Source: Chiloscyllium plagiosum (taxonomy: Eukaryota). Taken from it: 62,908 nucleotides of DNA. This document shows positions 1,141 through 39,339 of this stretch, piece after piece (positions within the stretch are counted from its first letter, which is position 1; every line of letters starts with the position of its first letter). The stretch lies in contig NC_057751.1 in the NCBI RefSeq assembly GCF_004010195.1, positions 6,704,863-6,767,770 on the forward strand. Direction: 5' to 3'. Below the pieces are notes generated by a model that saw nothing but the letters and a program-made list of their open reading frames with translations, did not search any database and was not told the origin of the DNA. A program made the translations under genes and the position numbers.

Positions 1141-2890
1141 AAACAAAGAACTATGGATGCTGTAAATCAGAAACTGAAACAAAAATTGCTGGGAAAGCTC
1201 AGCAGGTCTGGCAGCATCAGTGGAGAAAGAGAGTGAGTTAATGTTTCGGGGAAAGTCCAAAAGGTCTGAACTGACCCCATCTACCTCCAAGTTCCTCCAC
1301 CTGGCTGAGTTTGTTCTCGCTTTGAACAACTTCTCCTTTAACTCCCCTCACTTTCTTCAGTTAAAAATCACACAACAGATTATAGTCCAGGTTATAGTGT
1401 GCGATTTTTAACTTTTTACACCCAGCCCAACACCGACAGCTCCAAATCGCTTTCTTCATGTCAGACGTATGGCCATCGTTACCTGCGTGGACCCCAGTTC
1501 TTTGTGGGGTATGTAGAACGTACCTTATTCCAGTCCCACTTTGGTCCCTACCCACAACTCTTTCTCCAATACATTGATGATGTTGGTCCTGCTTCCCTCT
1601 CTCTTCTGGAATTGGAAAGGTTTATCAGTCACGTTTTCTAATATCACCTTGCTCTCACCTTCACCTGGTCCATCTCTCACTCCTCCTTTCCCTTCCTCCA
1701 CATCTGTTTCCATTTCCAAGAATAGACGAGCCACCAATATCTTCTCCAAATCCATTCAGTCCCACAGTTACCTGTATTATGCATTCTCACACTCTGCTTC
1801 CTATAGGGACTCCATCCCATTCTTCCAGTTCCTCTGTCTCCATCACATCTGTTTCGATGAACCCAACTTTGAAAAGGGGGCCTCCGAAATATCCATCTTC
1901 TTCCTCTACCAAAGATTCCACAGTACCATGATTGACAGGGCCTTCAGCTGTGTCCAAACCCCCCCATCTATTTCACCTCAGCCCTCACCTCTTCCCTTCC
2001 GTCTCACAACAGCAATAGGATGCCCCAGTCCTCAATTAACACCCAACTCGCATCCATATCGAAACAATCATTGGTTGCCATTTTGATCACTTTCAACAGG
2101 GTGCCACCACTAGACACATATTCCCCTCCCTTGTCAGTCTTCAGCAGGAGCTGTTCCCTCCAGGACAACCTGGTCCACTTCACACCTCTCCACACTGACT
2201 TGGGACATCCCTGTGCAATGTAAGAAGGTGCTACATTTGCCTGTTAACCTCATCTCTCCTCACCATCCCAGGTGCCAGACACACTTTCCAGGTGAGGCAG
2301 TATTTTATCTGCACGTCACTCAATCAAGCCTATAGTATTAGCTACGCACAATGTGGTCTCCTCTATACTGGGGAGAAGAAACACAGACTGGGCGATTGCT
2401 TTGTGGAACACTTACATTTTGTCTGCAAAACTGACCCTGAGATTCCTGTTAACTGCCATTTCAACACACCACCGTGGTCCCTGGCCAACACTTCTGTCTC
2501 AGGCTTACTGCAGAGCTTCAGCAGAGCTCAGCGCAAGTTGGAAGAACAGCACCTCATTTTCCGTTTGGGGACCACGCAGCCTGCAGGACTCAATATCAAG
2601 GTCATAAATTTGAGAGCCTGAGCACCTTCTGTTATCTGCTTATATCGACACCTATTTCCACACGTGCTACGACCACCACCATTGTGAACTACTAGTAGTC
2701 CGAATTAGCCAATGTTGATTCCCCCAGGCTGACCTGAATCCATTCCTTTGCCAAACTGTTGTTTTCTCTCTCCCCCTGGGCTTCATCGTTGATGCTGAGT
2801 TCTGAAGGGGGGTCATGGCACCCGAAACATGGATTCTGCTTTCTTTCCATAGATGCTGCCAGATCTGAGTTTCCCCAGCAATTTGTTTTT
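1141..2890 (+). mobile_element. Penelope-like retroelement (RT + GIY-YIG remnants), 5'-truncated, with inverted pLTR arm at 1141-1250
   Basis: Frameshifted motifs HLAEFVLALNNFSFNSPHFLQ and FVGYVERTLF..LFLQYIDD (RT), and YSISYAQCGLLYTGEKKHRLGDCFVEH..RKLEEQHLIFRLGT (GIY-YIG). 1176-1250 is an imperfect reverse complement of 2821-2890. Degenerate hammerhead at about 2800-2833. Confidence 0.9.
1360..1449 (+). mobile_element. Mini fold-back PLE-terminus insertion (family A) nested in the Penelope RT
   Basis: GTTAAAAATCACAC...GTGCGATTTTTAAC hairpin plus tail; TSD CTTTCTTCA at 1351-1359 and 1450-1458; same sequence family as 6656 and 34969. Confidence 0.8.
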
Positions 2891-3783
2891 AGAATCATAG
2901 ACTCTCAGAGATGTACAGCATGGAAACAGACCCTTCCATCTAACTTGTCCATGCCGACCAGATATCCCAACCCAATCTAGTCCCACCTGCCAGCACCTAG
3001 CCCATATCCCTCCAAACTCTTCCTATTCATATACACATTCATATACACATCCTTTTAAATGTTGCAATTGTACTAGCCTCCACCCCTTCGTCTGGCAGCT
3101 CATTCCATACACGTACCATCCTCTGCAAGTAAAAAGTTGCCCCTTCGGTCTCTTTTATATCTTTCACCTCTCAACCTAAACCTATGCCCTCTAGTTCTGG
3201 ACTCCCCCACCCCAGGGAAAAAACTTTGTCTATTTATCCTATCCATGCCTCTCATGATTTTATAAATGTCTATGAGGTCATCCGTCAGCCTCCGACACTC
3301 CAGGGAAAACAGCCCTCGCCTATTCAACCTCTTCTTATAGCTCAAATCTTCCAACTCTGGCAATATCCAAGTAAATCTTTTCTGAACTCTGTCAAGTTTC
3401 ACAAGAACTTTCCGATAGGAAGGAGACCAGAATAGCATGCAATATTCCAACAGTGGCCTTACCAATGTCCTGTACAGCCGCTACATGACCTCCCAACTCC
3501 TGTACTCAATACTCTGACCAATAAAGGAAAGCATACCAAATGTCTTCTTCACTATCCTATCTACCTGCGACTCCACTTTCGAGGATCTTTGAACCTGCAC
3601 TCCAAGGTCTTTTTGTTCAGCAACACTCCCTAGAACCTTTACATTTGCTTTCCCAAAATGCAGCACCTCACATTTATTGAAATTATCTCCATCTACCACT
3701 TTTCAGCCTTTTGGCCCATCTGATCAAGATCCTGTTGTAATCTGAGGTAACCTTCTTCGCTGTTCACTACACCTGCAATTTTG
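2891..3783 (-). mobile_element. CR1-clade LINE (HER1-like) 3' fragment
   Basis: Minus-strand ORF2 C-terminus KCEVLHFG, VRPLLEYC..FWSP, GLFSLECRRL, RTRGH; shark-type 3' tail ...CTGTACATCTCTGAGAGTCTATGATTCT. Confidence 0.93.
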
Positions 3784-4149
3784 CTTTTAATTAATCGAAA
3801 CGCACACTCAAAATGTTGTTGCTTCCTTGAATCAACTTCTTATAAAGCCCCGTGTGGGCTGATGGACTCACACAGTGGGGTAGATTTGCCAAGCAATCAC
3901 AATCTCTTGGAAATTGCCACTTCGCTCTTTTTGTCAAAATGCCACAAGAGAGCTCTGTATTTCTGACAGGAGATTCCGATCAAGCCATACATTCATTCTG
4001 ACAGTTCCCTTGTAGTGCAGAACTGTTGGCGAAAATCAAAGCATGCCCCCTTCTCCCCATCAAACATCTGCTGTAATCTGAGATTTAAAGGTCCAGGATT
4101 ATGTACAGCCACTTTGACAACGATTATCAAAATATAAGTGCATGAAGTA

Positions 4150-4760
4150 AATATGGAGGTGAGGATGCTCGGAGGAAGGTAAGCCGTCAGGTGAATAGAG
4201 TATCATGTGGCTTGTGAGGTAGAGTGCCAGTGAAGTGGGGTACCAGGCAAGTGATGGAGTGTCCAGGGTTGGTCAGTGCGGGTGAGAAGTAACGGGTCAG
4301 GCAGGATGTTGGTTGGAACATTGGTGCAGGTGGTGAGGTGGCAAGAGCGCTTGATGGGGAGCAGAGAGGGCGCGTACGGTTCGTGTATCAGAGGTTGAGG
4401 TGAGTGACAGTGAGTGTGGGAAGGTACTGCCTGCATTTGAGAGGGTGGCCAAGCATGAGCCTTGGTGGGAGGTAGGTGCAATGGCACAGTTAGGATGAGT
4501 TTTAGGTCGCAGCAAGAAGATGGTGGCACTTATTCCTTCCTGCGCTGTTAGGTATTTCTCTGAACTATTGACACTACAGTGACTGCATTCGCCACTTTGG
4601 ACCAAACTGGCAGATTCTGGTGCCAGGGTCTCCTACAGGGGTTCTGAGGAAAGAGGTTGGCTCTCTTCTCCACCAGTCCAGTTCATCAGGCCTCTGACAT
4701 TCCTATGGGTGATGCAGGGTGATGCAGAGTGCCAACTCCCCTTTGTCAGCCCTGGACTTC
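4150..4760 (-). mobile_element. Harbinger/PIF-type DNA transposon remnant (Myb/SANT-like gene fragment)
   Basis: Minus frame 4679-4530 reads GLVEKRANLFPQNPCRRPWHQNLPVWSKVANAVTVVSIVQRNT*QRRK, matching the W-x2-V-A-x2-V...R-x3-Q-C-R-K pattern of Myb/SANT-like (MSANTD/NAIF1-type) domains; it has in-frame stops. Confidence 0.6.
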
Positions 4761-4879
4761 AGACTTGTGCAAAACATTGAAAGGCAATTCCTGACTTTCA
4801 GGCTTTGACCAAGTGCACGGCTGGCGGAGGTAGCACGAATCCCCAAAGGTCTTGACAGCGGCCATTACCTCCACTGATG

Positions 4880-5045
4880 CTTTTTTAAGCAAAGATAGAT
4901 AGATTTTTGAACAGGAAGGGCAAGAAGGGTTATGGTGAGCAGGCATCTAAATGGAGCTGAGTCCACAAAAAGATCAGCCATGATCTAATTGAATGGCAGA
5001 GCAGGCTCAAAAGGTCAGATGGTCTCCTCGTGCTCCTATCCTTCT
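4880..5045 (+). mobile_element. CR1 LINE 3' UTR fragment
   Basis: GATCAGCCATGATC..TGAATGGCAGAGCAGGCTC..CTCCTA tail, closely matching 12477-12540. Confidence 0.85.
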
Positions 5046-6594
5046 GCTGAACACAGGATAACCTGACAGCAGTGTTACAGAGGGGTCTAGCATACAGCAT
5101 AAAGTCAGCAGTGGAGAATAGCATGAAAGCATTAGCTGGAGAGAAACAGTCCAGAAATCTCACCAAGTTCTGCTGAAGTTCAGTCCTTATGTTTGCCCTT
5201 TGCCAGTGAGGTGGTGCAGGAGACTGAACAGCTTTTTTTTTAACACAAAAGCAATGAGCTGATGATCAGTCAATCTAATATCTGTTGAGGGATTAGGATG
5301 AGTCACAACATAGCCTCTCTGCTGTCCTTTTGTTGAGAAAAAACAGGTCAGGCCAAAGTTCTCAACCAAAAGACAGCACATCGACACTGAAACATGCCCT
5401 TTTCTATTGTATTGGAAGGCCAATGGGAATTTTATGCTCAAGTCCCTGTTGCAGGTTTCTAACGTTGCAGGCTTCTCACTCAGATAAGAGTGTCCCTCCA
5501 GAATTCAGGCTGTACCTCTCCAGAGAGCAGGCAATCTGTTGAATGATGCACTCAGTCTACACGGAGAGGAGTTTAGAGAGTTGAGACTGCCAGTACAGGA
5601 GAGCCAGTGGGTTTGCAAAGCTCAGACGATAGTTTAATTGGGCCTTGTCAAGAGTGAGGTGTGGTCTGAGAGATCATAATAACTTTGTCTGTTACTCAAG
5701 CCTTTAAGCTTGTTTCTTTCAGCTGAGCTCGCTTTTCAACCATGTATACACAGTAGACAGTTGGTGAAGACGTGAAATGAAGCTCTCTCCAACAAAGTCA
5801 TACCTATCAGCATGGTGGCACAGTCAGGCAATTAGGAGAGCTGGTTGGATCGCCAGGAATAGATTTTGTTCATCTCTTTAAGATTGGTAAAATACTGTAA
5901 TTTTTCAAAATCAATGTCCAAATAAATGAGCATTACAGCTACTGTGAGTATCTTACAAATGTTCTGAGTTAAGCTGTTTCTCAAAGTCTAGTTCATGAAA
6001 TGAATCCTCAGCAGAAATTTTAGATTCCCAGTTCTCCTGTACATGTGCCTGTTCTTTCTGCCGGGAACACAGTAATTGCAATAGCTGCTCCTGGCATGTA
6101 ATTTCTCATTTTGTTTCATTTCCTGGCTGTTTTGAAAGCTAAAAGAGAGAGAAATTCTGTATGAATTTGATTGCCATGACCTCCTTAACAGCCTGATTAC
6201 TCTATTGAAGGAGGTGACGTGGAACCCTCTTTCTACTGAGGTGTGATTGGTAGAGAAAATGAGTTTGCTTCACTTTAAGGGGTCTGTGAACAGAATCCAA
6301 CATTAATAGGATGAAAGACAGGGTCAGTGAGCAATGGTTAAATTTGCCATTTTTCCAAGTTCGTACATACTGTCTGCCCTTCTTGGGAAATGCTCTCTCT
6401 CTATAGATTAACAATGCTACAAGATAACTTTAGGGGATTAATAAGATAACCCAGAGGGAAAAACCAGTAAGAGAAACAACAATACTTGGAAATTAATGGA
6501 TTGGATTTGTTGGAGCTCCTTTTTGAAGTGTACAAGACTGTTGGGACCAATATGTTGTCGAAGGAACAATTAGACAGCTGATAGTATTCTTGTT

Positions 6595-6608
6595 ACACAC
6601 ACACACAC
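6595..6608. repeat. (AC)7 microsatellite
   Basis: Direct read. Confidence 0.9.
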
Positions 6609-6655
6609 GTCACCTTTACTACTTGCAATGCAAGTACTCAACCTTTAAGGGACAA

Positions 6656-6803
6656 GATTTGGAGATGCTGGTGTTGAACTGGGGTGTACAAAGTTAACAA
6701 TCACACAACACCAGGTTATAGTCCAACAGGTTTAATTGGAAGCACACTCACTTCCAATTAAACCTGTTGGACGATAACCTGGTGTTGTGTGATTTTTAAC
6801 TTA
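6656..6803 (-). mobile_element. Fold-back PLE-terminus insertion (family A)
   Basis: About 52-bp near-perfect inverted arms (6691-6742 / 6751-6802), 35-nt unpaired tail at 6656-6690, TSD AAGGGACAA at 6647-6655 and 6804-6812. Confidence 0.88.
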
Positions 6804-7922
6804 AAGGGACAACAGTTGCCTTTGTCCCGAGAGCCTGTCTTTTGGCAGTTGCAATCACGTTTTTCTATACAAATCACATCAATTAAATATTGATTGTCAA
6901 GCTTTGGTAACATAATAAACCAATCACATTGCGCTTTGACTACATGGCAAATGAAGTTTAGCATTAGATCAATTACTTCAAACTTCTGCAACACAGGCTT
7001 AATGTGGTTTAGTTTCCTGTTGTCTCACTGAATTTGGACAAAATACAATAAGCTAGCATAGCTTGTGTACGTACCAGGCTACATGTTTATTTGTTAAGTG
7101 GAATCAGGTCTAATTAACTCTACCTCGTCTATATGTTTAGCTGCACATTTATTGTCTCCCCTCTTGAATAGCTTAGGTGACCAACTTTTAGGTTCTGGCC
7201 CCGTGTTTGATACCTTACACATTCCTCCCTTTTTGTCCTGAAGGAAGTTAGAAGTTATCTTCTGGGATGATCACTGCTGGACCATGGCGTTGGCTGTAGC
7301 CTTTTCACAAAACTGGTCCATAGGGTTGAAATGCACCCCATCAGGACCAAGACCATCATGATCAAGACCAGTACCAGATACACTACTGAGTGACTGAGCT
7401 TCCCCAATTCCCCAGGGTGACTTTAAGCCAGCCTATTGGGCTCCTGAAACCAGGGAGCTGCCTTAGCAAGTAGTCAGTGTGGCATGAGTTTTTCCCTCTG
7501 GAAAGGGACTTCCTGTTGAACAGGAGATGTACCTTAAGGGCAACAGTGAAGGGTCATTGAATTGAAACTTTACCTCTGTGCTGAATTTTCCCAGCATGGC
7601 ATGGATATTGGCGTGAAAGTTGAGACGAACACATGAGATCCCTATATTAGCAACAAAGTCTATCCCCCACAGGGATAGAAACAAAGTCAATCTCCCTCTA
7701 CTCTTTTACATAGAAAATAAAATTACCTCCCCAACAGCATCCACAGTAGAGGTATGGCATGGGGTAAGCCACAGGCTAAAGCTCTCTCTTGACTGGGCGG
7801 CTGGGCTGGGTTTAAAAGTTGGTGTGGTGCCTGAATTCTAAGAGCTCATGGCAGTGGCCACGACTTGTGCCTATGGGAAAGAGAGGATACGATGAGCAAG
7901 ATGTCTTAGGGAAGTGCTGCAT

Positions 7923-8108
7923 AGCAGGCAGTGAAGAAAGCTAATGGCATGCTGGCCTTCATAACAAGAGGAATTGAGTATAGGAGCAAGCTGTGCTTTT
8001 CCAGCGCCATACCTTTACACCCTGTTCAACATCTGCAGACCACATGTTCTCCTACTAATCCAGAGATCTAGGTAATGTGCTAGGTACCAGTGTTCAAATC
8101 CCGCCATG
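7923..8108 (+). mobile_element. Composite of a CR1 ORF2 fragment, a PLE tail fragment and a tRNA-SINE head fragment
   Basis: QAVKKANGMLAFITRGIEYRS (7923-7989); CTGTGCTTTTCCAGC..CATCTGCAG (7991-8053); B-box-like GTTCAAATCC at 8091-8100. Confidence 0.6.
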
Positions 8109-8346
8109 CCTCTTCAATATTAGTCTGGGTGCCTGGATTGTTGGTCAGTGACAATTACCACCACCTCCACATAAATAGTTTCTGGCGCCACCTGGAACAG
8201 GTCCCACTGAGTTAGATTGTGAGTGGTGGAACTTTGGGGTGACAGAAGCCAGTAAGAGGGAATAGAGGAAGACTTCTGCTCTTGAGAGATTTTTTTAAAT
8301 TTATATCTTGGATTAAGTGTTTGACACATATGCGTTTGTTAACATT

Positions 8347-8797
8347 CAGGAGGCTGGAAGAACACAGCAATCCAGGCAGCATCAGGAGGTGGAGAAGCCA
8401 TTGTTTCAGGTATAAACCTTCTTCAAGAATGGAGGTAGGGGCAGGGGGAGTTGCAAGTAAAGAGAGAGGGGCTGAGGGTTTGGGTGGGGAGAGAGTAGAG
8501 TTGTGAGGTAATGATAGGTGCACACAGATGGTGGGTACAACCTGGTTGGTGATGGGAGGAATGAATTTGGGTTCCTTCCACCTACTAACTGGATTCATTC
8601 TTCCCATCGACCAACCAAGTTGTACCCTCTACCGGTGTTAACCTACCCCCACCTCACCACCCTACATTCACCCCCCCCAACCCATTTATCTACAGTTCCC
8701 CTTATACCCACCCCCAGTCCTGAAGAAGGGTTACACCCGAAACATTGACTTCTCCACCTCGTAATGCTGCTTGGCTTTTTGGCCTCCTTCCTGTCTA
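8347..8797. mobile_element. Older, large fold-back of two PLE pLTR arms (family C, related to 47507-48812)
   Basis: 8347-8568 is an imperfect reverse complement of about 8592-8797; hammerhead motif at 8716-8750; arm sequence resembles 48590-48810. No clear TSD. Confidence 0.8.
8716..8750 (+). ncRNA. Minimal hammerhead ribozyme motif, degenerate
   Basis: AGTC-CTGAAGA-AGGGTTACACCC-GAAAC-ATT-GACT. Stem I is AGTC/GACT; the cleavage triplet GTC has decayed to ATT. Confidence 0.65.
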
Positions 8798-9036
8798 AAA
8801 AGAACAAAATGCTGATTTCTAATAAACCTTAGCTCTCTGTTTCTTGCTTCCCAGCCAACTTCTAGCCTGCTGAGTGTTTCTAGCATTTGTACTTTAATTT
8901 CAGACTTCCAGGGTCCATCGTGTTTTGTTCATTTATAAATAGGGAGGGAAGTCTGTGATTCAGGATCTAAAATAGATCTCAGGTTATCCAAAGTGGAAAG
9001 ATTCAATACAATTCACACATTGATCGTTCAGAAGGT

Positions 9037-9675
9037 TAGATTCATACAGCATAGAAAAAAAGGCCCTTCAACCCATCAAGCGTGTGCCAGCCAAATAAAC
9101 CCACCGACCTACTTTAATCCAATTTTCCGGCACTTGGCCCCTTGATATGTATGTCTTCGCATTGCAAGTGACATCTATATCATTCTTAAATGTTATGAGG
9201 TTTTCTGCCCCTACCACCCTCACAGGCGATGAGTTCCAGATTCCCACCATGATCTGGGTGGAAAAAAAATTCTCACATCTCCTCAAAACCTCCTGAACTT
9301 AGCTTAAATCTATGACCCCTAGTCATTGATCCTTACACCAAGGTTAAAAGTTTCTTCCTGTCTACTCTATCTGTGCCCCTCAATTTTATACATCTCATTC
9401 ATACCCCCTGAGTGTCTTCTGTTTCAGGGAAAACAATTCAGTCCATATCCAATTTGTTTTCATTACTAAAACTCTCTAGCCCAGGCAAGATCCTGGTAAA
9501 TCTCATCTGCACTCTTTCCTGTTCAATCACGACAATGTGAATTCCAGAGCTGCATGTGTTACTGTAGTTGTGGCCTAAAACAACATTGAATACCTCTGTG
9601 GTGGAAATTAGCCTGCTCTTAAATTCTACGCCTTGGCTAATAAAGCAAGTATCTCATGTGCCTCCTTAACCACTC
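9037..9675 (-). mobile_element. CR1-clade LINE 3' fragment (older)
   Basis: Minus ORF RRCENFFSTQIMVGIWNSSP..TFK; CR1-type 3' tail. Confidence 0.8.
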
Positions 9676-10130: not shown

Positions 10131-10693
10131 TCTTTAAAAAAATGCTCAATAAACATTGATTTTCAAATTTATTGCATGTCACCAGATGCTTTTCTTTGGT
10201 GATATATGATACATTTATTCCTCATGATTTTCTCTTCCTTTCCACCAGACGATTTAGGTTTCGTCAGCCTTCCCAATTACTCACTCTCTGGGCAGGATCT
10301 TGTGCTCCCAGATGGAGCGAGGCAAGACATGGGAATTTCATTTAATTAGGGAGAGGTGGGAATATAGCAGATCGTTACCATCCTGAATCCTGGCCTTGCA
10401 GCCTTCACTGGAATTAAGTTTGAACAGCATTGCCTATTATCAACCTTTCACCCCGCCATCATTGAAGCCTTGAAGTGGGCAATTATGAGGTTCAACCTGC
10501 TGCTTGTGAGATTAACTTAGCTGCAAGTGGGTCTGCCAACATTTGGACTTAGCGCAATTGGAAAGAGCATGGACTGCCGTGGCCTGGTGAAGAGAATGGC
10601 TCTCATCCAAGGCACTCACTACCTGATTGAGGGCATGGACATTGGGGCAGGGGGTGTGTCTGAGAGCCACACCTCAGCAACTCACGTTTGACC

Positions 10694-20560: not shown

Positions 20561-21042
20561 GGAAGCAGAGCAGGTGTTGCATTGATAGCTTTCAAGCAGT
20601 CGCATGGAAATGGTGTATGTTATGTATGTTATAAATTAGTCATCTTTTATTGGTTCTTACTTCTGCTATTTACAGTTTGCTTAGCATAATTTAAATTAGA
20701 ATATATTGTTAATAATAGCATGTGAGCTGTTTGAACACTGGTGTATTATTTGACTAAGTTAGCAATAATCTTTTGAAGACTCTTCTTTTATGTTAACCTA
20801 GCACCGTTGTGCTTTGGAAAAGCAGAGATTGTATCTGTGAAAGTTAAAGTTGCATTTTTAAAAAAATTAAAAATCAGAGGTGGGCACCACCTTCAATGGC
20901 AAGATTAACATTTGTATCCCTATTGGCCCTTGAGAAGGTAGCGGTGATTGCATGTTTCAAACATTTACATTTACACAATGGCATGCAAATCTTCAAATGT
21001 TCTAAAACACTTCACAGGTCAGGCAGCATCCAAGGAGCAGGA

Positions 21043-21080
21043 GAATCGACGTTTCGGGCTTGAGCCCTTCTTCAGGAATG
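21043..21080 (-). ncRNA. Minimal hammerhead ribozyme motif, core intact
   Basis: Minus strand CATTC-CTGAAGA-AGGGCTCAAGCCC-GAAAC-GTC-GATTC; palindromic ACGT stem III, short imperfect stem I. Confidence 0.75.
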
Positions 21081-21349
21081 AGGAAAGTGTGTCCAGCAGG
21101 CTAAGATAAAAGGTAGGTAGGAGGGACTTGGGGGAGGGGCGTTTTTTGTCCGCAAATTGTCCACAATTTCCCTCCCAGATGTAATCGACGATGCCCTCCA
21201 CCGCATCTCCTCCACTTCCCACTGGACAGCTGGAGGAAGAGCACCTCATCTTCCGCCTAGGAACCCTTTCCACCTATCGCATTTCCAACGCCCCTCCCCC
21301 AAGTCCCTCCTACCTACCTTTTATCTTCGCCTGCTGGACACACTTTCCC

Positions 21350-21387
21350 CATTCCTGAAGAAGAGCTCATGCCCGAAACGTCGATTC
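21350..21387 (+). ncRNA. Minimal hammerhead ribozyme motif (stem II mismatch)
   Basis: CATTC-CTGAAGA-AGAGCTCATGCCC-GAAAC-GTC-GATTC. Confidence 0.65.
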
Positions 21388-22834
21388 TCCTGCTTCTTGG
21401 ATGCTGCCTGACCTGTTGCGCTTTTCCAGCAACACGTTTCCAGCTCTGATCTCCAGCATCTGCAGTCCTTACTTTCTCCTAAAACACTTCACAGTCAATT
21501 ACATGCTTTTGTAGTGTTATCACCATTTCAATATAATGTACAGCAACAAAAGGATCTCAAAGAGTCACCATCAGTAACTGAACTCCTGAAAAAAAGATAA
21601 TGGCACCTATGTTAATGGTAAGGTAGGTTCCAAGCAGAGTACTTGAATTACGTGCAAGTATACTCGCTATCAAATCAAATTCTGATTTTAAATTAGACTA
21701 ACCGATTTACATATTTTCTTCCTGATCCCGAGAATCAAGCAGACGTGATGCGCACTGGCAATGATGCAATTTCAAGGTGGATTTGTCAGTGCCAGTGTCA
21801 AAATTAAATTTGGAGGAGCTAGGCGGTGTTTTAATGTTGCACAAAGTTTTGGTGATTCTTCCTTTGAATTGTGCCTGAGCATACTCAGGAGAAAGAGGGA
21901 CATGCTGTTGTTCTGAAACAGGAAGCATAAACCTACTATTCCGAGTGCCTTTGGAGGAGGTGCAGGAGAGGACCTGGACTTCCAGGTCTTGGGTACAGTG
22001 CAGGAAACAATTCAACAAATAACCAGGTCAGGAGAAGTGAGCACTGAATGATTGACTTGCTGTGAACAAACAACCCACCCCATCTCCATCTTGCCAAGTA
22101 TATTTCATCACAGCAGTCCTCGTACCCATCATGTCTTCAGCATTACGCAGACTTCACTTTATGTTACTCCATACTTCTACATTTATTCATCCTGTATATT
22201 GATTGTGGTGTGATAGATGCCCTCACCGAACGCACTGTTCTTTCTTTCACCTGGGAGAAGAGCATGCAAAGTATGAGAGGAAGGTCTACCATAAATAATC
22301 CAGTTCGTCACTGCGGAGACTAGAGTCACGGAGATAATTATCACGTTTGAATCCATCTCAGTGGATGTTGTAGACACTGAGAATTTGCATATATTTTGTG
22401 ATAGTATTTTTAAGAACAGTCTTGACACACAGGCCAACTTCATTTCATCAATGACTCGATTATGAGAAAGCAGAGTCTGACAATTGTCAAGACAGTTATT
22501 TTTTAGGATTATTTGATGTGATTTTCTTCAGTCTTGCAAAGTCTTCATATGCAGAACAAGAGCCTGTGGGCATGCAGGATGACAATTGCTGAGGGGTGTT
22601 TATTCATTCTGAGGATGCACCATCCCAGCCCATATAGCCATCTGAGTTCACACACTTTGATGAGCCCAGTTAGACAATTAATTTGGCTTTCACCTGCTGA
22701 TTCATTATTCACAAGTGAGCACAATAGAAACGGATGAGGTGACACAAAACTCTTTCTGTTAACCACTTGAAGTTTTGAGATTATTTTGTTACCACCCATC
22801 TCTGCAGAGGTTAAAGGTTTAACCAAGTGGTCTG

Positions 22835-24994: not shown

Positions 24995-25950
24995 AGAATT
25001 CTGGGGGAACAGAGAGATTTGTATCTGGTGCATGAGTCACAAAATGTTAGATGCAGATAGAGTGTGCAATCACAAAGACTAATGGAATGGCATTCTTTAT
25101 TATAAGATAATTGAAAGGCTCATTGTGGCTTTTATATTTCAGTTATACATGGCATGAGTGAGACCACAACTCTAATACTGTCACAGGTTTTGGTTTCCTT
25201 ATTTAATGAATGGTGTAACTGAATTGGAGATGGTTCAGAGGAGGTTTACCAGAGTGACACCTGGAACGAGTGGATTATCTTCTGAGGCAAAAGTAAGGAC
25301 TGCAGATGCTGAAGGTCAGAGTCTAGATTAGAGTGGTGCTGGAAAAGCACAGCAGGTCAGGCAGCATCTGAGGAGCAGGAGAATCGACATTTCAGGCAAA
25401 AGCCCTTCCTCGGATGCTACCTGACCTGCTGTGCTTTTCCAGCACCACTCTAATCTAGGGTTATCTTCTGAGGCTAGATCGGAGAGACTGGGCTTGTTTC
25501 TGGAGTTTAGAATGTGTGAGAGAAGACTTGATTGAAGTATAGAAATTCCTGAATGGCCCTGACAAGATGGATGTGTAAAGGATGTTTCCTGTGGTGTGTC
25601 AGTCTAAAACTGGGGGCACTGTTTTAAAATCAGAGGTCACAATGACATTGATGAGATTTCCTTTCTCTCAGGTTTGTGTGACTTTGGAACTCTGCATCAG
25701 AAGGCAGTGGGGACAGGGATCAATGAATATTTATAAAACAGAGGTGGATTTGTCATTGTTCGGTAGGGGTCCTGCAAGTGTAATCGGCAGGGACGTCGAT
25801 GGCATCCCTCACCTCATACATGTTGCAGGAGGAACATTGCACTGTTATTGGGGGAATATGGAATTCAGAATAAACAAATGAGCCATAATTTTCTTGAATT
25901 GCAGAATGCATGTCAAGGGCTGAATGATCTACTTGTCCTTTTGCACATGT
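24995..25950 (+). mobile_element. CR1 LINE 3' fragment interrupted by a PLE fold-back
   Basis: Degenerate KTNGMAFFI, VQRRFTR, MFPVV..SKTGG; CR1 3' UTR at 25875-25950. Confidence 0.8.
25289..25457 (-). mobile_element. Fold-back PLE-terminus insertion (family B)
   Basis: Arms 25323-25374 / 25408-25458, 34-nt tail; TSD TTATCTTCTGAGGC at 25275-25288 and 25461-25474; the long arm stops inside the hammerhead; matches 62095-62215. Confidence 0.92.
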
Positions 25951-29035: not shown

Positions 29036-29039
29036 GTCA

Positions 29040-31202: not shown

Positions 31203-31300
31203 GATTCTCCTGTTCCTTGAAAGCTGCCTGACCTGCTGCGCTTTTCCAGCAACACATTTTCAGCTCTGACCTCCAGCATCTGCAGTCCTCACTTTCTCCT
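31203..31300 (+). mobile_element. PLE 3' terminal fragment (family D) starting at the predicted hammerhead cleavage site
   Basis: Aligns to 21383-21480; similarity begins exactly at GATTCTCC. Confidence 0.85.
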
Positions 31301-34300
31301 CTTGAACTACATCACATGATGTTCCAGCATAATTTTGGTTTTTGAGGGATCTCCACAAGCAATCACGACTGCCTGACTAGAAGAAAGCATTACAAGTGAA
31401 GAACACAGATGAATTCTCCCATAATAAACATTGTATTTTCATTTTCACTTGAGGCAGTTTTCACTGACTTGTTAATTCAAAATAAACTCAGTTTTCACTT
31501 GGAGATTTGGCAGGGATCTGAAACAGAGCGTGAGATCAGCATGCTTGAGAGGGTTCGGTGCAATTTGCTTTGCTTATGGATGATCTCGTTACAGCTGATC
31601 TCAAGCACACTGCAGTTTGAAATGTATTTTTCAGCTGATGTCATGTCTGAGGGGAAAGTAATTCTCACAGTGGCAGTTTTCTTACCACCTTGTGGAGTGA
31701 ACTGTGTCTGTGTGGGGTAGTAGCCAAATCCCTGGGTGCTGTTTCTATACACAGTACATATACTACAAACCTGAATACCTTGGGAATCATTGCAGTTTTT
31801 ATAAACCATGAAATGCTTTCAAGCAATGGTGAACACTGCACTGAAGAGGGCCAGCTGCACTTGAGATCCATTTGCACTCGTCATCTGATACAGTAGGGGG
31901 CTAATGAAACTCTCAATAGGACATGCATTAGATTGAATTCTTCTGCAGGAAAAGCCCAAGTGGAAAATGGATTTGATTTGTGACTTGCATCACACAGATG
32001 TGTTTGAACATTTATGACCTGGTCACTCAGTGCTTGGAGCTTACATAAAATACCTTGCTCAGAAACTGGCCAGTTGGCCTGAGCACTCCACAATGGTGCT
32101 TATGATCTGCTTGATTTGCATTTTGGTCCAATGAAGATGGATGTGTGTTTGAACTGAGTTTAATATTCCACACATGGTGCGGGCTTCATGAAAGCTCTGT
32201 GACACAAATAGCTAGCTTTCAATGAATATTTTGTCTCAAAGCTTTGAAGATTTCTATCATTACAGAGCTTACATTTTACTTTTGGTGCTAGAAAATTATA
32301 GAGGCTATTCATAAAGCCCAAAGTTTGGGAGATAATTGCAATAGGATACCTCCTACTTCTGACATTACATGGGGAGGATTTGGATTTTGAAACCTGAGGT
32401 GCCAGTTGGAGGCCGTGTAGTTTAAAGGAATATGCAACAACTTAAGACCATAAGATATTGGAACAGAAATTAGGCAGTTCAGCCCATCAAGTCTGCTCGG
32501 TCATTGTATCTGGCTGATACCTTTCTCCCACTTTCTCCCATAACCCTTGAACCTCTTGATACACAAGAATAAACTATCTCAATCTTAAATTTACCCAATG
32601 ACCTGGCCTCTACAGCCTTCTGTGCAGTGAATTCCATAGATTCACCACCCTCCGTCTGAAGACGTTTCTCCTTATCACCGTTCTAAAAGGTCTTCCCTTT
32701 ACTCTGCCCTCGGGTCCTTGTCTCTCCTACCAATGGAAACATCTTTCAAACATCTGCTCTGTCCAGGCCATTCAGTATGTTTCAGTAAGATCCCTCCACA
32801 TCCTTCTAAACATCAAGTATAAGCCGAGAGTCCTCAAACGTTCCTCACATGTTAAGCTTTTCACTCCTGGGACTATTCTTGTGACCCTCCTCTGAACTTG
32901 TTCCAGGGCCACTACATCCTTGCTGAGATACGGGGCGCAAAACTCCACACAATATTCCAAATATAATCAGACCAGAGCCTTATAGAGCCTCAGAAGTACA
33001 TCCCTGCTTTTATGTGCACGTCCTCTCAAATAAATGCCAGCATTACATTTGCCTTCCTAACGTGCAAGTTTATCTTACGAGAATCCTGGACTAGAACGCC
33101 CAAGTCTCTTTGCACTTCAGACTTCTGAATTTTCTCCCCATTTAGAAAATAGTCCATGCCTCTATTCTTCCTACCAAAATGCATGACCTCACACTTTCCC
33201 ATGTTGTACTCTGTCTTCCACCTCTTTGCCCACTCTCCTCACCTGTCCAAATCATTCTGCAGGCTCCGCACCTTCTCAATACTACCTGTCCCCTTACCTA
33301 GCTTTGTTTCGTCTGCAAACTTAGCCACAATGCTCTCAGTTCCTTCATCTATAAAGTGAAAATTTGTGGTTCCAACACTGAGCCCTGTGGAACACCACTT
33401 GTCACTGGTTGCCATCCTGAGAAGAACCTTTTTATCCTCACGCTCTGCTTTCTGCCAGACAGCCAAGCTTCTACCCATGGTAGCACCTTGCTTCTAACAC
33501 CATGGCCCCTTAACCTACTCATTAGCCTCCTGTGCAAAGGCCTTGTCAAAGGGGTCTCCTTGGGTCCATTGGGTCCCCTTGGTCTAACCTGCTTGTTACT
33601 TCCTCAAAGAATTCTGTTAGATTTGTCGGGCATGACCTCCCCTTGCTGACTTTGCCCTTCCAAACCTTCAGAAATCTCATCCTTTGCAATGGATTCCAGG
33701 ATCTTACCCATGACCAAGGTTAGGCTAATTGGTCTGTAATTTTCCATCTTTTGCCTTACTCCCTTTTTTAGCAGGGGTGTGCCGTTAGCGATTTTCGATC
33801 CTCTGGGACCCTCCCTGATTCTAGCGATTCCTGAAAGATCACCACTAACACATCTTTTATCTCTTCAGCTATCTCCTTTAGAACTCTGGGGTGTAATCCA
33901 TCTAGTCCAGCTGATTTATCCAGCTTCAGGCCATTCAGATTTCCAGCACCTTCATCTTGGTGATGGCCACCTTACTCAGCTCTGTCCTTTCACTCTCTTG
34001 AATTTTGGGGTTATTACTGGTGTCTTCCACCGTGAAGACTTACGCAAAATAATTATTCAGTTCTCAGCCATTTCCTTGTTCCCCACTATGGCCCTCTAGA
34101 AAATGTCACTGGAGAGCACATGTCCACTTTTGCCTGTCTTTTGCACTTTATATATTTAAAGAAACTCTTTCTTTATATTACTGGCTAGCTTGCCCTCATA
34201 TTTAATCTTCTCCCTCCTTTGTTTTGTTTCCCTTCTTTTGATGTTTGTAAGCTTTCCAACCCTCTGGCTTCCGACTGCCCTTTTTTCCATATTATGTGCT

Positions 34301-34399
34301 TTCTCTTTTGCTTTTATGCCATCCAAGACTTCCCTCGTCAGCCATGGTTGCCTCATCCCCCCCTACACCGTGTTGCCGTTCGCTCATAATGAAGCTTCC

Positions 34400-34663
34400 A
34401 TTAGATTACTTACAGTGTGGAAACAGGCCCTTCGGCCCAATAATCCACACCGACCCTCCGAAGAGCAACCGACCTAGACCCATTCCCCTACATTTACCCC
34501 TTCATCTTACACTACGGGCAATTAGCATGGCCAATTCACCTAACCTACACATTTTTGGACTGTGGGAGGAAACCAGAGCACCGGAGAAAACCCACGCAGA
34601 AACAGGGAGAATGTCCAAACTCCTCACAGTCAGTTGCCTGAGGCAGGAATTGAACCCAGGTCT
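34400..34663 (-). mobile_element. HE1-like V-SINE, 5'-truncated at the B box
   Basis: V domain and GGGTTCAATTCC; tail GTAAGTAATCTAAT on the minus strand. Confidence 0.9.
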
Positions 34664-34968
34664 AATCTAGTAAGTAATCTAATCTAATTTTGGTCTGCGC
34701 CACAAGCTAATTTACTTTATTTCTTGTACTGCGTACATTCAGATATATCACTTTCTGTCCAGTATTAACCATCCCCCTTCTCATTGTCATTTGTTTGTCC
34801 AGTGTGCTTGAAGTTTGATTGCTGACTCTTTCCAAATGCCGTGTCCTCTTTGAGTCTGTGCTGGAGATTTTTAGAACTTCTCCTGAATTCTGTACTCTTA
34901 CTGCCTCCTTTAATTCAGGTTTTCTAATTTCCCCTAAAACTGAACACCCGCAACCATCTATTTTAAAG

Positions 34969-35177
34969 TTAGAAATCACACAACACCAGGTTATCGTCCA
35001 ACAGGTTTAATCAGAAGCACACTAGCTTTCGGAGCGCTGCTCCTTCATCAGGCGGTTGTGATGAAGGAGTGGTGCTCCGAAAGCTAGCGTGCTTCTGATT
35101 AAACCTGTTGGACTATAACCTGGTGTTGTGTGACTTTTAACTTTGTACACCCCAGTCCAACACAGGCACCTCCAAAT
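34969..35177 (+). mobile_element. Fold-back PLE-terminus insertion (family A) with hammerhead sequence in both arms
   Basis: About 85-bp arms 34965-35050 / 35059-35144, roughly 35-nt tail; TSD TATTTTAAAG at 34959-34968 and 35182-35191 (14 bp with 1 mismatch). Confidence 0.92.
35018..35056 (-). ncRNA. Minimal hammerhead ribozyme motif (CUA cleavage triplet)
   Basis: Minus strand CCGC-CTGATGA-AGGAGCAGCGCTCC-GAAAG-CTA-GTG; palindromic AGCT stem III; 3-bp stem I. Confidence 0.72.
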
Positions 35178-35189
35178 CATTTATTTTAA

Positions 35190-35640
35190 AGCCCTGTCTA
35201 CAGACCTAGTTATGCGATTCGTGAGGACTCTGCTCCCAGTATGGTTCAGATGAAGACCATCCCATCAGAACAGGATCCTTCTTCTCTGAAACTGGTGCCA
35301 ATGTCCATAAATTCAAACCCATTTGCCCCACACCAATCTTTGAGCCACGCATTTACCAGCTTAACCTTATTGACCCTATGCCAATTAGTTCGTGGCTCAG
35401 GTAATAATTCAGACATTATTAACTTTTTAGTTCTGCTTTCTAATTTAGCTCCGAGCTGTTCATGCTCCCTGAGCAGAACCTCTGCCCTAGTTCTTTCTAT
35501 GTCGTTAGAACCTACATGGACTATGACCACTAATCTTTACCCTCCCATTCCAAGTTCCTTTGCACTCCAGATGAGATATCCCGATTCTGAGCACCAGGCA
35601 GGCAACACAACCTTCAGGACTCTCGATCCTACTCACAGAG
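35190..35640 (-). pseudogene. CR1 ORF1 SGNH/GDSL-esterase domain remnant
   Basis: CLPG-like segment, HVGSND block, DG..H-type terminal motif (ORF 35246..35530). Confidence 0.85.
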
Positions 35641-37559
35641 AACAGTGTCTATGCCAGTAACTATATGATCCTCAATTACGACAGCATTTCCTTTTCTCTC
35701 CCCTCACTTGAATGGCTTCCTACACCATGGTGCTGCATAATAAAGGGGACATTCAGAGAGGGCATTTCAGCAAGTGGGTGCCAGTTTAGTCACTGCAGCT
35801 ACTTCAGAAGATCCGAAAGCTACCAGCACACGACTGTGTGCAATTATGGGGTTGGGTGTGCAACTCTACCTGGAGTCCTTTGCTTGTATCTCCAGCTTGT
35901 AAGACAGACCTTGGTGGCAGTGCCAGGGACCTGGATATTATATTCACCCACTGATGCTGGTGCATGGCAGTTGAAATGCTGCCACACAACCCCGATTCAC
36001 TGAAAATTGAAAAATCCCAGTTAGTCGTCTTAATCTCTCGATAACAAGGCCATTTGTTAGGATCTCCATGAGAGCATTCAGATAAGAAATTGGACTGTCA
36101 GTTAATGGCTAATAGGATGACACAGCAAGATTGCCCATTTCAAGACTTCTGCTATCCCAAACCAAAACTAAAAACATTATTAGCCAAACACTACTTTTCT
36201 CGGCAGCTGAGAGCCAAACTCCCCACTTGACTTTGAACAGAGCTGAAAAATAAATAACTTCACTGGTAGACTTGACACTGTCCTTCAAGGAGACAGTCAA
36301 CTCTTACAAACCTAGTCAGAAGTAACCCTCAGCTCCTAAAGATTTACTTCCATGATTTACCTTTCTCAGCCCAGAACGTTTGAATCCCAGAATTGTCCTT
36401 CATGACAGAGGGCTTTCCTGGAGAATTTCTACATCCCCACCCCTGAAGCTTAAGCTCAGCAAATCTTCCAATCTCATCTAAACCCTGATTAATTTTGGCT
36501 ATTTGACCTGAGTGCAAGCTCTCATCTGTATCCATTTGCAGTTAAAACCAGAGAGACTTTCAGAGTCAAGATGCACGTCCTCCCAGACCCTAGTTGGTTA
36601 GACACTCAGTTTCCAGGATATCTGAAAAACCTTGTAGTCTCAAAGTCTTTGCAATATAAATCACTTCAACTGCGTGTCCAGATAGAAATGAGGATCCTTT
36701 AAAACCTACCTCTTTTACCCTGGAAGTCAAATTCACAGTTTGCAGAAGAAGTGGTGACATCTTGACAGGGTCAACACATTCCTGGGAAGTTGGAGACAAG
36801 CATTTCCATCCACTGAAAACGGTTGCTGCTTCTATTATTTTTGCTTCTTTCTTTCACAGGATGCAGACATTGGTCGCCGTCCTTAATTGTTCCTGGAAAT
36901 GCTGGGCCATTTCCAAGATCAGTTAACAGCCATCAGTCTCCAAGGGAGGATTTGAGCCCTTGCCCCTACACATAAGCCTCTGCTACTGGATTATGGCCAG
37001 TGGCAGAACTACAGTGCTACCATCTGCTTGTACCTTCTTCACAAATAAACACCTGGGCCTTGAAACTTGCAGAATCATGTCACTCAAAGTTACACCTGCA
37101 GAATATCAAAATGGTCCCATTGCTTCCCCCTTCATTTTGCTCCAAATTTTAAAAAGTCCTCAACACACATATATGTATATGTTACATATTATGTATATAA
37201 CAACATGCATTTACACTGATACAATTTCAACATGACTTTTGTTTTCCATTTTATTAAATTGTATTCTAATGTTAGATTTTCAAAATGCATTAAGTTCTTG
37301 CAGTGTGTTGGCAGGGTCATGACAGGTCTATAGCCGCCCCCCCCCCATGCTGCAGTCATTCTTAAATTCCATTTTGCAGGTTACCAGTAATTCCTGTTAA
37401 AGTAAGAATAAATAAAATGAAAGTCGAATCTGCAGTTGTCATTGTTTGACAACGTTTAGTTCTGTTCCTGAAACATGCGATGATGCTGTCACTTTGAAAA
37501 AGGTCTTTTGTCCTTGGTTTTGTTTTGAAGAGAGGCCTAAAGATAGAGGTACCAAAAAG

Positions 37560-37763
37560 GTAAAAACAATGACTGCAGATGCTGGAAACCAGATTCTGGA
37601 TTAGTGGTGCTGGAAGAGCACAGCAGTTCAGGCAGCATCCGAGGAGCAGTAAAATCGACGTTTCGGGCAAAAGCCCTTCATCAGGAATGAATGCCCGAAA
37701 TGTCGATTTTACTGCTCCTCGGATGCTGCCTGAACTGCTGTGCTCTTCCAGCACCACTAATCC
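37560..37763 (-). mobile_element. Fold-back PLE-terminus insertion (family B), young
   Basis: Arms about 37595-37669 / 37692-37766 with a single mismatch; perfect 15-bp TSD AGAGGTACCAAAAAG at 37545-37559 and 37764-37778. Confidence 0.95.
37651..37688 (-). ncRNA. Minimal hammerhead ribozyme motif, core intact
   Basis: Minus strand CATTC-CTGATGA-AGGGCTTTTGCCC-GAAAC-GTC-GATTTT. Confidence 0.8.
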
Positions 37764-39339
37764 AGAGGTACCAAAAAGTCTGCTATACCAATGGAAAGGG
37801 AGTAGTCACTTCTCCCAGTTCAGATTTTTTTTTTTAGTTTGTTTTAGTCGTAGCAGTCACAAGATGTGAGAGTCCAGGGGTGTTGCAAGCTTCAGTAAAG
37901 AATTCCTCTGACTTTCTTCTGAGATCTCTCTCTGGATGCTGCACCCTTCTGACCATAAGAATCTGTGTTTGAATTTACCTTTTTGCCAATGGGTGTATTT
38001 ATGGCAGTTGAAAGTTACTGCATTAGAATGGTTAATTAATAATAGTTACTGTATCAGGTCAGTTAAGATTTCCAATAGTTCAGTTATGCCAAATTTCCCT
38101 TTCTTTTGTTTGTGTTTCAACTGTAGTATTTTGCTTAAAGCGGAATGGTTTGACCAGATGTATCACACCTGGAACAGCCACTTCACATCTGTCTTCAAAA
38201 TAAGAAAAGTTAGGGTCTAGGCTACCTTCTTAAAATATTTTGAGGGTGTCTGGCTTGGTCCATAACAAATGCACTTAGTCCACTTAACACCACAACCCAC
38301 CGCTGGAGAGGAGTTCAAAAGGAGGAAGAGAAATGTCTCGTCCTACGCCAAACCAGGAAGCAAGTTACAACAGAGACCTGAATTTAATCTGCACCTGGAA
38401 GGACAGATCTTCAGGATGCCCACTTGTGACTCAGTTGCCCAGCTGTATATTTGGTGCACTTTGTGGAAAAAGATCAAGGAACAAACTGCTGCTCCCCAGA
38501 TGACCTGTTCTTGTGTCTTCAGGATTGGAAAGTTCATTGGACTTGGACATTTGAACTTTTCTTACCTTGTCAAAGAGATGCACCTGGTGTGCCACCGACC
38601 CGCACTCCAACCTTCTCTTCACCTCTACAGCTTTTAAAATCAGTAATCAGTAATTGCTTGCTGAAATGCCTCCTGTCATGTTGATGGATGTGAATACTGA
38701 AAAAAACAGACGCCTGTTGGAGTGCTTATTGTTGAAAACCCCTGGCTCTGCTGAAACTTTATTATCAAGGCAATGAAGTGTTTATCTCCCAGTACCAGTA
38801 GCAGAAGTGACACAGAGAAACTGAACTTATTTCATTGTATTTCATGTCATGGGTGGGTGTTAAATTCAATCTGCCAATTGAAGAAGTGTTTATCAGATTT
38901 CTATCACAACGCTAAAGTTAAACCAAGAATTACATCAGCATTCAAATCTCATAAACCAAATGATAGAGTTCCAAATACAGTTAGGTTGCTTCCTTATCTC
39001 TTGCTTCTCTGTTGTATGCATTTTAAAATCTGCAGTTCCCAGTGCTCCAGAATCAGCGCTGTGTATAGATACAGATCTGCAAAGTGTGCTTGGAATCAAA
39101 ATGCTTCACATCCTCCACATGCTGTAAACTTTAGTGGAAGCCGGGCATTGTGAAGTGGTTCTGGCTAAAGATTCCAACATTTTGCAGCTAGAAATGTGGA
39201 GTAGGGAGTCAGGTGATTGTCAGTTTGCAAACCCGAATGTATAATTAAGTTTGGTAGCATTGTGGTTGTGAGAACTGAAGGCTACTTGACATTATGGCCA
39301 GTGAAACCATGACACCCCATTACATTACACATAGATCTG

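Follow-up and report, generated by a model that had tools for sequence, protein, structure and literature searches.

Within a 62,908-nt window of the Chiloscyllium plagiosum genome (contig NC_057751.1, positions 6,704,863 to 6,767,770), a first-pass annotation had placed seven hairpin insertions at 1360, 6656, 8347, 21018, 25289, 34969, and 37560, and all seven were present at these positions (Table 1). The locus raises the question of which part of which element these hairpins represent, and whether they are copies of one another or separate products. In each hairpin, the 5' leader of a Penelope-like element (PLE), with its ribozyme, is present as two short copies placed head to head. We consider it probable that these were made anew at each insertion by both strands of a staggered cut priming at two internal sites, with the cDNAs running off the capped RNA 5' end before joining.

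Table 1. PLE-derived features of the window; positions count from its first nucleotide
Feature	Position	Strand	Details
Older 1.7-kb PLE copy	1177..2890	+	RT motifs to GIY-YIG region; inverted arm 1177-1250 matches 2821-2890
e1, family A hairpin	1351..1458	+	TSD CTTTCTTCA, 1351-1359/1450-1458, 9 bp exact; short (inner-site) arm starts ~1359; tailed long arm ends 1449
e2, family A hairpin	6647..6812	-	TSD 9 bp exact (6647/6804), 13 with one mismatch; short arm 6751-6802; tailed arm 6656-6746, sense on the - strand
e3, family C head-to-head pair, old	8338..8777	.	Reaches upstream of ribozyme; arm complementarity 76%
e4, family B1 hairpin	21002..21494	+	16-bp exact TSD (21002/21479); 130-nt arms
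e5, family B hairpin	25275..25474	-	14-bp exact TSD (25275/25461), 17 bp if one mismatch allowed; 34-nt tail
Single-arm family B1 stub	31203..31300	+	From ~+28 to outer site
e6, family A hairpin	34959..35191	+	10-bp exact TSD (34959/35182), 14 bp if one mismatch allowed; 86-nt arms, each with minimal hammerhead motif; tail 35145-35181; short-arm end at -9 (5' edge)
e7, family B7 hairpin	37545..37778	-	15-bp exact TSD (37545/37764); 35-nt tail; tailed arm 37560-37690 reaches 5' edge; short arm 37692-37766
Single-arm family B7 stub	44762..44886	+	Predicted start (ATTCC before CTGATGA core) to outer site
Long 5'-truncated family B copy	51378..52200	-	Endonuclease C-terminus, 3' UTR, leader, tail
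Long 5'-truncated family B copy	62096..62815	-	Endonuclease C-terminus, 3' UTR, leader, tail

The source element and its copied segment

The hairpins are short head-to-head pieces of an EN+ PLE, of the Neptune/Nematis type by its features. [quoted passage not shown] Such downstream halves were read in two ORF copies, one of them largely N, and the RT evidence comes from family A copies. A pLTR with a minimal hammerhead lies both before and after the ORF, and the inverted truncated copy, the 30-40-nt tail, and the target site duplication (TSD) are all present. We identified the hammerhead motif (CTGATGA-stem II-GAAA-palindrome) by eye against the available text of PMC4209133; an Rfam scan gave 0 matches at the gathering score, and a Pfam scan of four degraded window fragments gave no relevant match.

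According to the accessible portions of the sources, EN+ PLEs (Neptune/Nematis) insert as units with an inverted, 5'-truncated head-to-head copy, a one-ended tail of 30-40 nt, and a TSD (PMC8557442; Pen2a_Av, PMC3846280), and Schistosoma carries opposite-strand hammerhead pairs 100-700 bp apart (PMC4209133). A hairpin layout of this kind has thus been reported before in PLEs, and the older copy at 1177..2890 is the long form of it (e1 is located within the RT region of that copy). As far as those portions allow comparison, our insertions share with EN+ PLEs the head-to-head truncated copy, the tail, the TSD, the pLTR hammerhead, and the RT with CX2-5CxxC linker and C-terminal GIY-YIG. They differ in their TSDs of 12-16 bp (~12-13 bp in family A, 14-16 bp in family B) and in the minimal 130-240-nt form, which accounts for between one-third and more than half of the insertions in the genome sample described below (60/181 in family B and 31/56 in family A, both lower bounds). 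We also considered the non-LTR retrozymes, defined by tandem head-to-tail hammerhead units (bioRxiv 10.64898/2026.07.22.740005), and rejected them: the pairs here are head-to-head, and no such arrays occur in the window.

The first-pass annotation had derived the hairpins from Penelope 3' ends. The assignment to PLEs stood, but the arms turned out to be the element's 5' leader: copies that include the ORF (MTTIDTTN...) carry this leader ahead of it. In family A the arms correspond to the stretch bounded by a TATA-like box and the ORF's ATG. Priming at the RNA 3' end, as the annotation proposed, did not hold. The family A start sites lie at about +85 and +122; the outer one sits on the ATG with the ORF continuing past it, and polyadenylation in RNA reads occurs ~25 nt before the inner one. 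It follows that neither start site is terminal and that both lie close to the mRNA 5' end, in agreement with Frangieh 2024.

Pairing of start sites and diversity of junctions

We counted family A and B insertions in a position-blind sample of 1.53 Mb of the genome and found 91 hairpins. Hairpin counts are lower bounds, because at least five "single" copies visibly carry an inverted arm missed by the script. The annotated frequency of about one hairpin per 9 kb held within the window, whereas families A and B in the sample gave one per 17 kb, again a lower bound. Extrapolation puts the number of short inverted repeats thus placed in this vertebrate genome at ~200,000.

The exact TSDs of 9-16 bp reported for six of the seven window hairpins were recovered; a search for a credible TSD at e3 and for any TSD at the 44762..44886 stub found none. 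In the sample, TSDs of at least 8 bp flanked 67 of the 91 hairpins versus 4 of 227 displaced control sites, so hairpin TSDs are not due to chance. Non-edge single-arm copies fit less well, as only 16 of 114 had TSDs. The long arm exceeded the short one by 36 (e1), 35 (e2), 34 (e5), 37 (e6), and 35 nt (e7), matching the annotated 34-37 nt; this value is not fixed, however, as the sample ranged from 26 to 45 nt, centred on 34-38. e4, which was outside the annotation's five asymmetric hairpins, has an asymmetry of 62 nt. Its 143-nt loop consists of PLE ORF pieces from the thumb region and the endonuclease C-terminus (frames give FFVRKLSTISLPDVIDDALHRISS and QLEEEHLIFRLGTL), for which the sequence makes template jumps the likely source.

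Start sites were paired almost without exception. Among the 73 hairpins with both ends classifiable, 71 joined an outer to an inner site, 2 were inner plus inner, and 0 were outer plus outer (p 6e-19 against 0.5; one end was unclassifiable in 18/91). Inverted partners lay at the head side of 57/79 (A) and 111/202 (B) non-edge arms, compared with 2/77 and 16/221 at the tail side. The annotation had noted 1-4 nt of overlap with the TSD at the short-arm start, which we confirmed and extended to both ends: mean target overlap was 1.89 nt at the outer site (27 flush junctions) and 1.72 nt at the inner site (29), versus 0.55-0.59 nt for shuffled TSDs, although TSD ascertainment inflates the overlap and a rough estimate puts the null at ~0.8 nt. 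The pairing and the RNA-target overlap at both ends bear out the proposal that both target strands prime, at two fixed sites. Arms were closer to their own partner than average (0.104 versus 0.149 in A; 0.121 versus 0.196 in B), and 8/8 arm pairs agreed at each of two diagnostic words, as one RNA or two RNAs of one subfamily would predict alike. At the central junction, microhomology was not in excess of what simulations of blunt joining gave (p 0.73 and 0.38).

Priming from one side and then self-priming by fold-back, for example on an antisense template as the available text of PMC3846280 proposes for head-to-head PLE repeats, could account for those junctions that are near-perfect palindromes, and family B RNA reads do occur on both strands. 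Such a process predicts that the same end is retraced, whereas the second arm starts at a separate fixed site that directly abuts the opposite TSD copy and shows a target overlap of its own. Many loops are asymmetric and contain gaps and templated inserts, and a cap-like G (below) marks the sense 5' end; we regard fold-back as quite improbable and retain priming by both target strands.

Junctions were distinct in 31/31 family A and 59/60 family B hairpins (90/91 junction triples). Shared loop junctions, which the annotation had named beforehand as evidence against its own view, were thus nearly absent, and the hairpins are not a clonal MITE but probably arose de novo, as it had proposed; the MITE class, in which the terminal inverted repeats are symmetric and clonal copies have a common interior, is also at odds with the ~35-nt asymmetry. 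Amplification from MITE- or SINE-like non-autonomous masters would fit two observations: all 40 scored matches to e6 were near full-length hairpins, and one junction occurred in 67 exact copies. Those 67 copies, however, compare with 39,679 exact arm 23-mers, and, with 29 of 30 loci parsed, they sat on different subfamily backgrounds, with differing ends and with arm mismatches that were only private or of CpG type. We consider clonal amplification largely refuted, its residual probability being very slight. The window's loop junctions likewise all differ, as annotated, but breakpoints are not free: they pile up at a sharp 5' edge that often carries an extra G.

The 5' edge and the ends of the transcript

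This edge lies ~32 nt past the TATA-like box. Arm ends fell within 15 nt inside it rather than outside in 33 versus 4 of 87 cases (A) and 107 versus 7 of 241 (B). There were 3,459 genome matches, and among the first 100 of them 99 shared the same spacing from TATA-like box to ribozyme, while the spacer itself varied. ORF-bearing copies fit the edge less well: of 20, only 2 start there, 12 start further in, and 6 reach upstream of it. An extra G was found in 1,996 of 2,911 family A arms with a non-C at -9. In the first 100 rows each, counted by eye, the G:A ratio was 65:11 at -9 versus 10:14 at control position -3 (p 5e-5); only G and A were compared, because a subfamily carrying T at -3 confounds that control. 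The partner arm could have templated ~25 of 64 junction G's in family A rows, and without these G still made up 39/52. Family B showed a modest excess, with G at 10,641 of 17,302 purines before ATTCC (61.5% versus ~42% by composition). At locus L265 both arms carry the extra G, and in single-arm copies it often falls within the TSD. An identical extra G would result if an untemplated C were added at an end lacking a cap. The sharp edge with its extra G is as expected for, and suggests, run-off at a cap.

Twin priming could also operate with an edge that is not a cap, if RT stalls past the ribozyme fold or if the template is a short processed RNA ending at the outer site, a version near to that of the annotation, with C added without template. 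Neither of two RNA read alignments listed a read-start pile-up at the predicted start, the edge adjoins hammerhead stem I, and many arms end 0-15 nt inside it, all of which favor this alternative. RT would, however, already be past the structure on reaching the edge; the edge keeps a constant spacing from the TATA-like box and falls on a CA (initiator-like) dinucleotide; the G excess is position specific; and target overlap at the outer junction matches an RNA running on into the ORF. We judge this alternative unlikely and favor run-off at a cap.

Templates might instead be hammerhead-cleaved monomers or circles, as in retrozymes, given that most arms contain a minimal hammerhead with palindromic stem III and that two arms, the long one of e2 and that of the 31203 stub, stop close to the cut site. 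Ends did not pile up at the cut site: they numbered 3/87 in family A (+25 to +29) and 7/241 in family B (+26 to +30), where 1.9 and 4.9 per 5 nt would be expected. Arms mostly pass through the cut site, a circle would leave no edge, and cleavage was unnecessary in vitro according to the accessible text of PMC11167929, which together make a cleaved template highly improbable relative to a capped, uncleaved one.

Family A transcripts were polyadenylated at +57/+60 (one RNA run, related species), and family A copies can supply polyadenylation sites; family B RNA reads contained no poly(A) pile, and a further RNA run aligned with 0 reads. With polyadenylation upstream of both start sites, the family A leader would have an LTR-like U3-R-U5 layout. 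Genomic copies of the poly(A) junction, a sign of 3'-end priming or of a nonhomologous jump, numbered 7 versus 43 for the reversed control.

Proposed mechanism and related systems

In the mechanism that we favor, a staggered double cut would leave 3' ends 12-16 nt apart, and two RT active sites, probably in a dimer, would each take a different start site, ~35 nt apart. The edge would be the transcription start, predicted at -8 (A) and -4 (B) relative to the CUGAUGA core, and the G a copied cap. Trimming of both cDNA ends and end joining would follow, in some cases preceded by short template jumps. Stubs would be dead-end products, and long copies may arise when a tandem read-through transcript is copied from its downstream repeat, or after a jump.

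The closest biochemical parallel is TPRT in vitro by PAc (Poseidon, Anolis), in which, in the text available (PMC11167929), both strands are cut and extended, two internal start sites bound the tail, ribozyme cleavage is dispensable, and a dimer is predicted. Extension of both strands, the tail-bounding sites, and the predicted dimer resemble the hairpins; in contrast, the PAc sites are within the ORF, whereas the family A outer site is at the ATG. The accessible part of the same study (Frangieh) reports that the two strands did not differ in their use of the start sites, which means that the one-each rule was not reproduced there, and contains no analysis of paired products, cap, or transcript ends. 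L1 elements, in the available text of PMC11702581, likewise show twin priming in which the second target strand primes on RNA with microhomology and the TSD is preserved, and an extra G from cap copying at complete 5' ends. The L1 type was rejected for the hairpins: there, first priming takes place on the poly(A) 3' end, and the adjacent cDNAs essentially do not overlap, whereas here both sites are internal, the same 85 nt are copied twice so that the arms overlap fully, and poly(A) junction copies are rare, as above. In the accessible portions of PMC8557442 and PMC3846280, the one-outer/one-inner rule, the 5' edge with its extra G, and the polyadenylation site are without description, and an open-access literature search found no earlier account of a cap edge or a strong-stop model.

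The replication cycle of PLEs, the sister group of telomerase RT, including the rebuilding of their end repeats, has long been open, and strand pairing together with the cap model would make the question testable. The stubs amount to thousands of in vivo snapshots that favor a capped template of sense orientation, a single start site for each strand, cuts staggered by 12-16 nt, and a transcript whose start and end are mapped. In LTR retrotransposons and retroviruses, which use a tRNA primer and an integrase, minus-strand strong-stop DNA is primed just downstream of the leader and runs off at the capped 5' end. The hairpins would share priming just 3' of a putative U3-R-U5-like leader and the predicted run-off; they differ in using target DNA (both strands) as primer and GIY-YIG in place of integrase, and transfer to the 3' repeat is putative here.

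A bolder reading, which we hold tentatively and at less than even probability, is that the pLTR is a working LTR. The monomer mRNA would have its capped start 8 nt ahead of the hammerhead and its poly(A) site ~60 nt after it, so that both RT start sites would occur once per RNA, near its 5' end. Every insertion would begin as target-primed strong-stop DNA on both strands, long copies and new pLTRs would come from a putative jump, like that of retroviruses, onto the 65-nt R segment repeated at the RNA 3' end, and the ~200,000 hairpins would be failed jumps. Upstream and tail subfamilies of long B arms were concordant in 35/40 cases and discordant in 5 (one or two possibly chimeric).

Penelope-like hairpins in the window

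The hairpin arms are part of Penelope-like elements (PLEs): each hairpin consists of two head-to-head copies of the PLE 5' leader, which in ORF-bearing family A copies lies immediately 5' of the ATG. The family A ORF matches Pfam RVT_1 (E 2e-9) and encodes a C-terminal GIY-YIG domain with a CX2-5CxxC linker, and the arm repeat recurs downstream together with its tail; this ORF and repeat layout agrees with the Neptune/Nematis definition in the excerpted text of PMC8557442. For family B, the link is to the C-terminus of the PLE endonuclease, present in long but partial copies within the window. Within the arms is a minimal hammerhead motif whose stem III is palindromic, resembling the hammerheads in the accessible part of PMC4209133, and Rfam returned zero matches for the arms. 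Locus L194 has a 110-nt tandem duplication that takes in both the family A tail and the DNA flanking it.

All seven hairpins described in the first-pass annotation were found in the window sequence, which spans G000:C42:6704863-6767770, together with their six TSDs and five arm asymmetries of 34 to 37 nt. They are real, abundant insertions of a known kind, with a layout already described in PMC8557442 and PMC3846280 (excerpts), and their minimal form gives unusually clear information on mechanism. The loop of e4 is composed of PLE ORF pieces, and its stitched structure points to repeated template jumps within a single event. A separate inverted pair in the window is possibly a MITE-like element unrelated to the PLE hairpins.

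Locations of hairpins and related features (window positions unless a contig or locus is named)
Feature	Location	Observation
Hairpin e1	start 1360 (region 1300-1460)	landed in RT region of older PLE copy
Older PLE copy, host of e1	1177-2890	has an inverted arm of its own
Hairpin e2	start 6656	
Hairpin e3	start 8347	no TSD found
Hairpin e4	start 21018	asymmetry of 62 nt, unlike the five 34-37-nt cases
Loop of e4	21144-21286	one 3' UTR piece plus two pieces from separate parts of the ORF, all from the same element
Hairpin e5	start 25289	
Hairpin e6	start 34969	
Hairpin e7	start 37560	
Separate inverted pair	44984-45364	43-nt arms (91%), 295-nt interior, no match to PLE arms
Family B leader	62080-62247	read on both strands in organism B RNA; many A>G differences, strand-switch joints
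Family A leader	L218:1433-1454	strong polyadenylation site in organism B RNA
Junctions, studied genome	G000:C1, e.g., 2752615, 8237448, 45870716	extra G, then a few bases re-copied from the RNA's first 20 nt (CCTGATGA..)
Head-to-head long-arm pairs	G000:C1, e.g., 69010955/69011419, 70886805/70887954	0.5-2 kb apart

Abundance, independence, and end pairing

The census covered 18 large contigs, from which 160 segments of 10 kb were taken at round coordinates (1,529,246 non-N bases of a 3.56-Gb genome). The sample held 56 family A insertions, 31 of them hairpins, and 181 family B insertions, including 60 hairpins. The resulting density for A and B together, 1 hairpin per 17 kb or ~200,000 genome-wide by extrapolation, is a lower bound, with family C left out and at least 5 hairpins scored as singles. 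Junction triples were distinct in 31/31 family A and 59/60 family B hairpins, upholding the earlier claim that these are not copies of one MITE. Exact matches in the genome number 67 for the e6-type junction and 39,679 for an arm 23-mer. Because the loci with this junction differ in subfamily letters and ends, with arm mismatches that are private or CpG-type (29 of 30 loci parsed), the recurrent junction is, judged from sequence, convergence at a hot spot. The long-arm pairs on contig C1 link mini-hairpins with canonical inverted pseudo-LTR (pLTR) insertions in a graded series.

Arm 3' ends were bimodally distributed between an outer and an inner start site; in family A the outer site is at ~+122, on the ATG, and the inner site at ~+85 (positions are counted from the C that opens the CTGATGA hammerhead core, taken as 0). 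Among 91 hairpins, 71 combined an outer with an inner end, 2 had two inner ends, none had two outer ends, and in 18 one end could not be classified. TSDs of ≥8 bp flanked 67/91 hairpins versus 4/227 controls, with length modes of 12 to 13 (A) and 14 to 16 (B), and were present in only 16/114 non-edge single-arm copies. RNA-TSD overlap was 1.89 nt (outer) and 1.72 nt (inner) versus 0.55 and 0.59 nt with shuffled TSDs, values raised somewhat by TSD ascertainment; this test used those 33 whose TSD was exact over at least 9 bp, out of 52 family A elements (24 from the sample and 28 e6-like matches).

The 5' edge and the extra G

Loop breakpoints differ between copies, as originally proposed, but are not free: they cluster at a sharp 5' edge. 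Arm ends lay within 15 nt inside versus outside it in 33 versus 4 of 87 family A arms and 107 versus 7 of 241 family B arms; in these same arms, ends were not in excess at the ribozyme cut site. The family A edge is an A at -8, 32 nt downstream of the first T of TATAAA; of the first 100 matches (3,459 in total), 99 share this spacing despite a subfamily-variable spacer. In family B it is an A at -4, within TCATTCC/CTATTCC. TTTATCT, non-canonical as a TATA box, lies ~33 nt upstream of that A.

Non-consensus letters at -9 in family A were G in 1,996/2,911 cases. By eye, the first 100 departures comprised 65 G, 24 T, and 11 A; ~21 were intact copies with a point change and 79 were junctions. G occupied 64 of these 79, and 39/52 once cases templatable by the partner arm were dropped. 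Control position -3 gave a G:A ratio of 10:14, against 65:11 at -9 (p = 5e-5). Family B had G in 10,641 of 17,302 purines before ATTCC. The extra G was seen on either arm, and on both at locus L265. Such a G marks cap copying in L1, according to the excerpt of PMC11702581. It may instead be non-templated C addition, and two observations count against the cap reading: RNA reads had no read-start pile there, and only 2/20 ORF-bearing copies begin at that point. At several C1 junctions, leader bases follow the extra G as if RT had jumped from the cap back to the leader. Single-arm family B stubs at eight loci (L227, L231, L234, L239, L247, L248, L250, and L251) have GAT(T) within the TSD at the 5' junction, suggesting base pairing between the target overhang and a cDNA end that carried the extra base.

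Insertion mechanism and polyadenylation

Hairpins probably arise from two start sites on sense, capped RNA: each target strand would prime at a different site, the cDNAs would reach the cap after 90 to 130 nt, and their ends would be trimmed and then joined, in some cases after template jumps such as those that would build the e4 loop of ORF pieces. Central-junction microhomology was not in excess over simulation. For another PLE in vitro, the accessible text of PMC11167929 reports that both strands are cut and extended, that two internal start sites bound the tail, and that ribozyme cleavage is dispensable; a dimer is predicted. Antisense self-priming was proposed in PMC3846280 (excerpt), and PMC2377424, as excerpted, places the Penelope promoter within the pLTR and leaves pLTR regeneration without an obvious mechanism. 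Retrozymes, in the portion of the retrozyme preprint consulted, are tandem units, unlike PLE hairpins. The pairing rule, cap edge, and strong-stop model are undescribed in the open-access literature searched; the excerpt of PMC13000458 and PMC7353768 hold nothing further on PLE hairpins. Read-through tandem RNA may be the ordinary route to long copies, and a jump to the 3' repeat is a conceivable but rather doubtful one. Among 40 long family B arms, the upstream part and the tail agree in subfamily in 35 and disagree in 5, of which one or two may be chimeras.

The family A RNA reads came from one raw polyA single-cell run (X19) of coded organism B, which may be another species than the one studied here. 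A-tails followed +57 and +60 in 449 and 537 of 3,583 aligned reads, 12 to 15 nt downstream of an ATTAAA/AATAAA hexamer, and read depth fell from 1,477 to 316 at the tail point. Because only 7 genome copies have an A-run there (43 in the control), the tails are likely post-transcriptional and uncopied by the element. The tailed reads may also derive from a few host transcripts that end in PLE copies. Taken at face value, both family A start sites lie 3' of the polyA site, a U5-like position. A polyA pile was absent from the RNA reads for family B. Family B hairpin transcripts may be double-stranded RNA or editing substrates; their A>G differences could equally reflect subfamily divergence. Family A copies, for their part, may terminate host transcripts.
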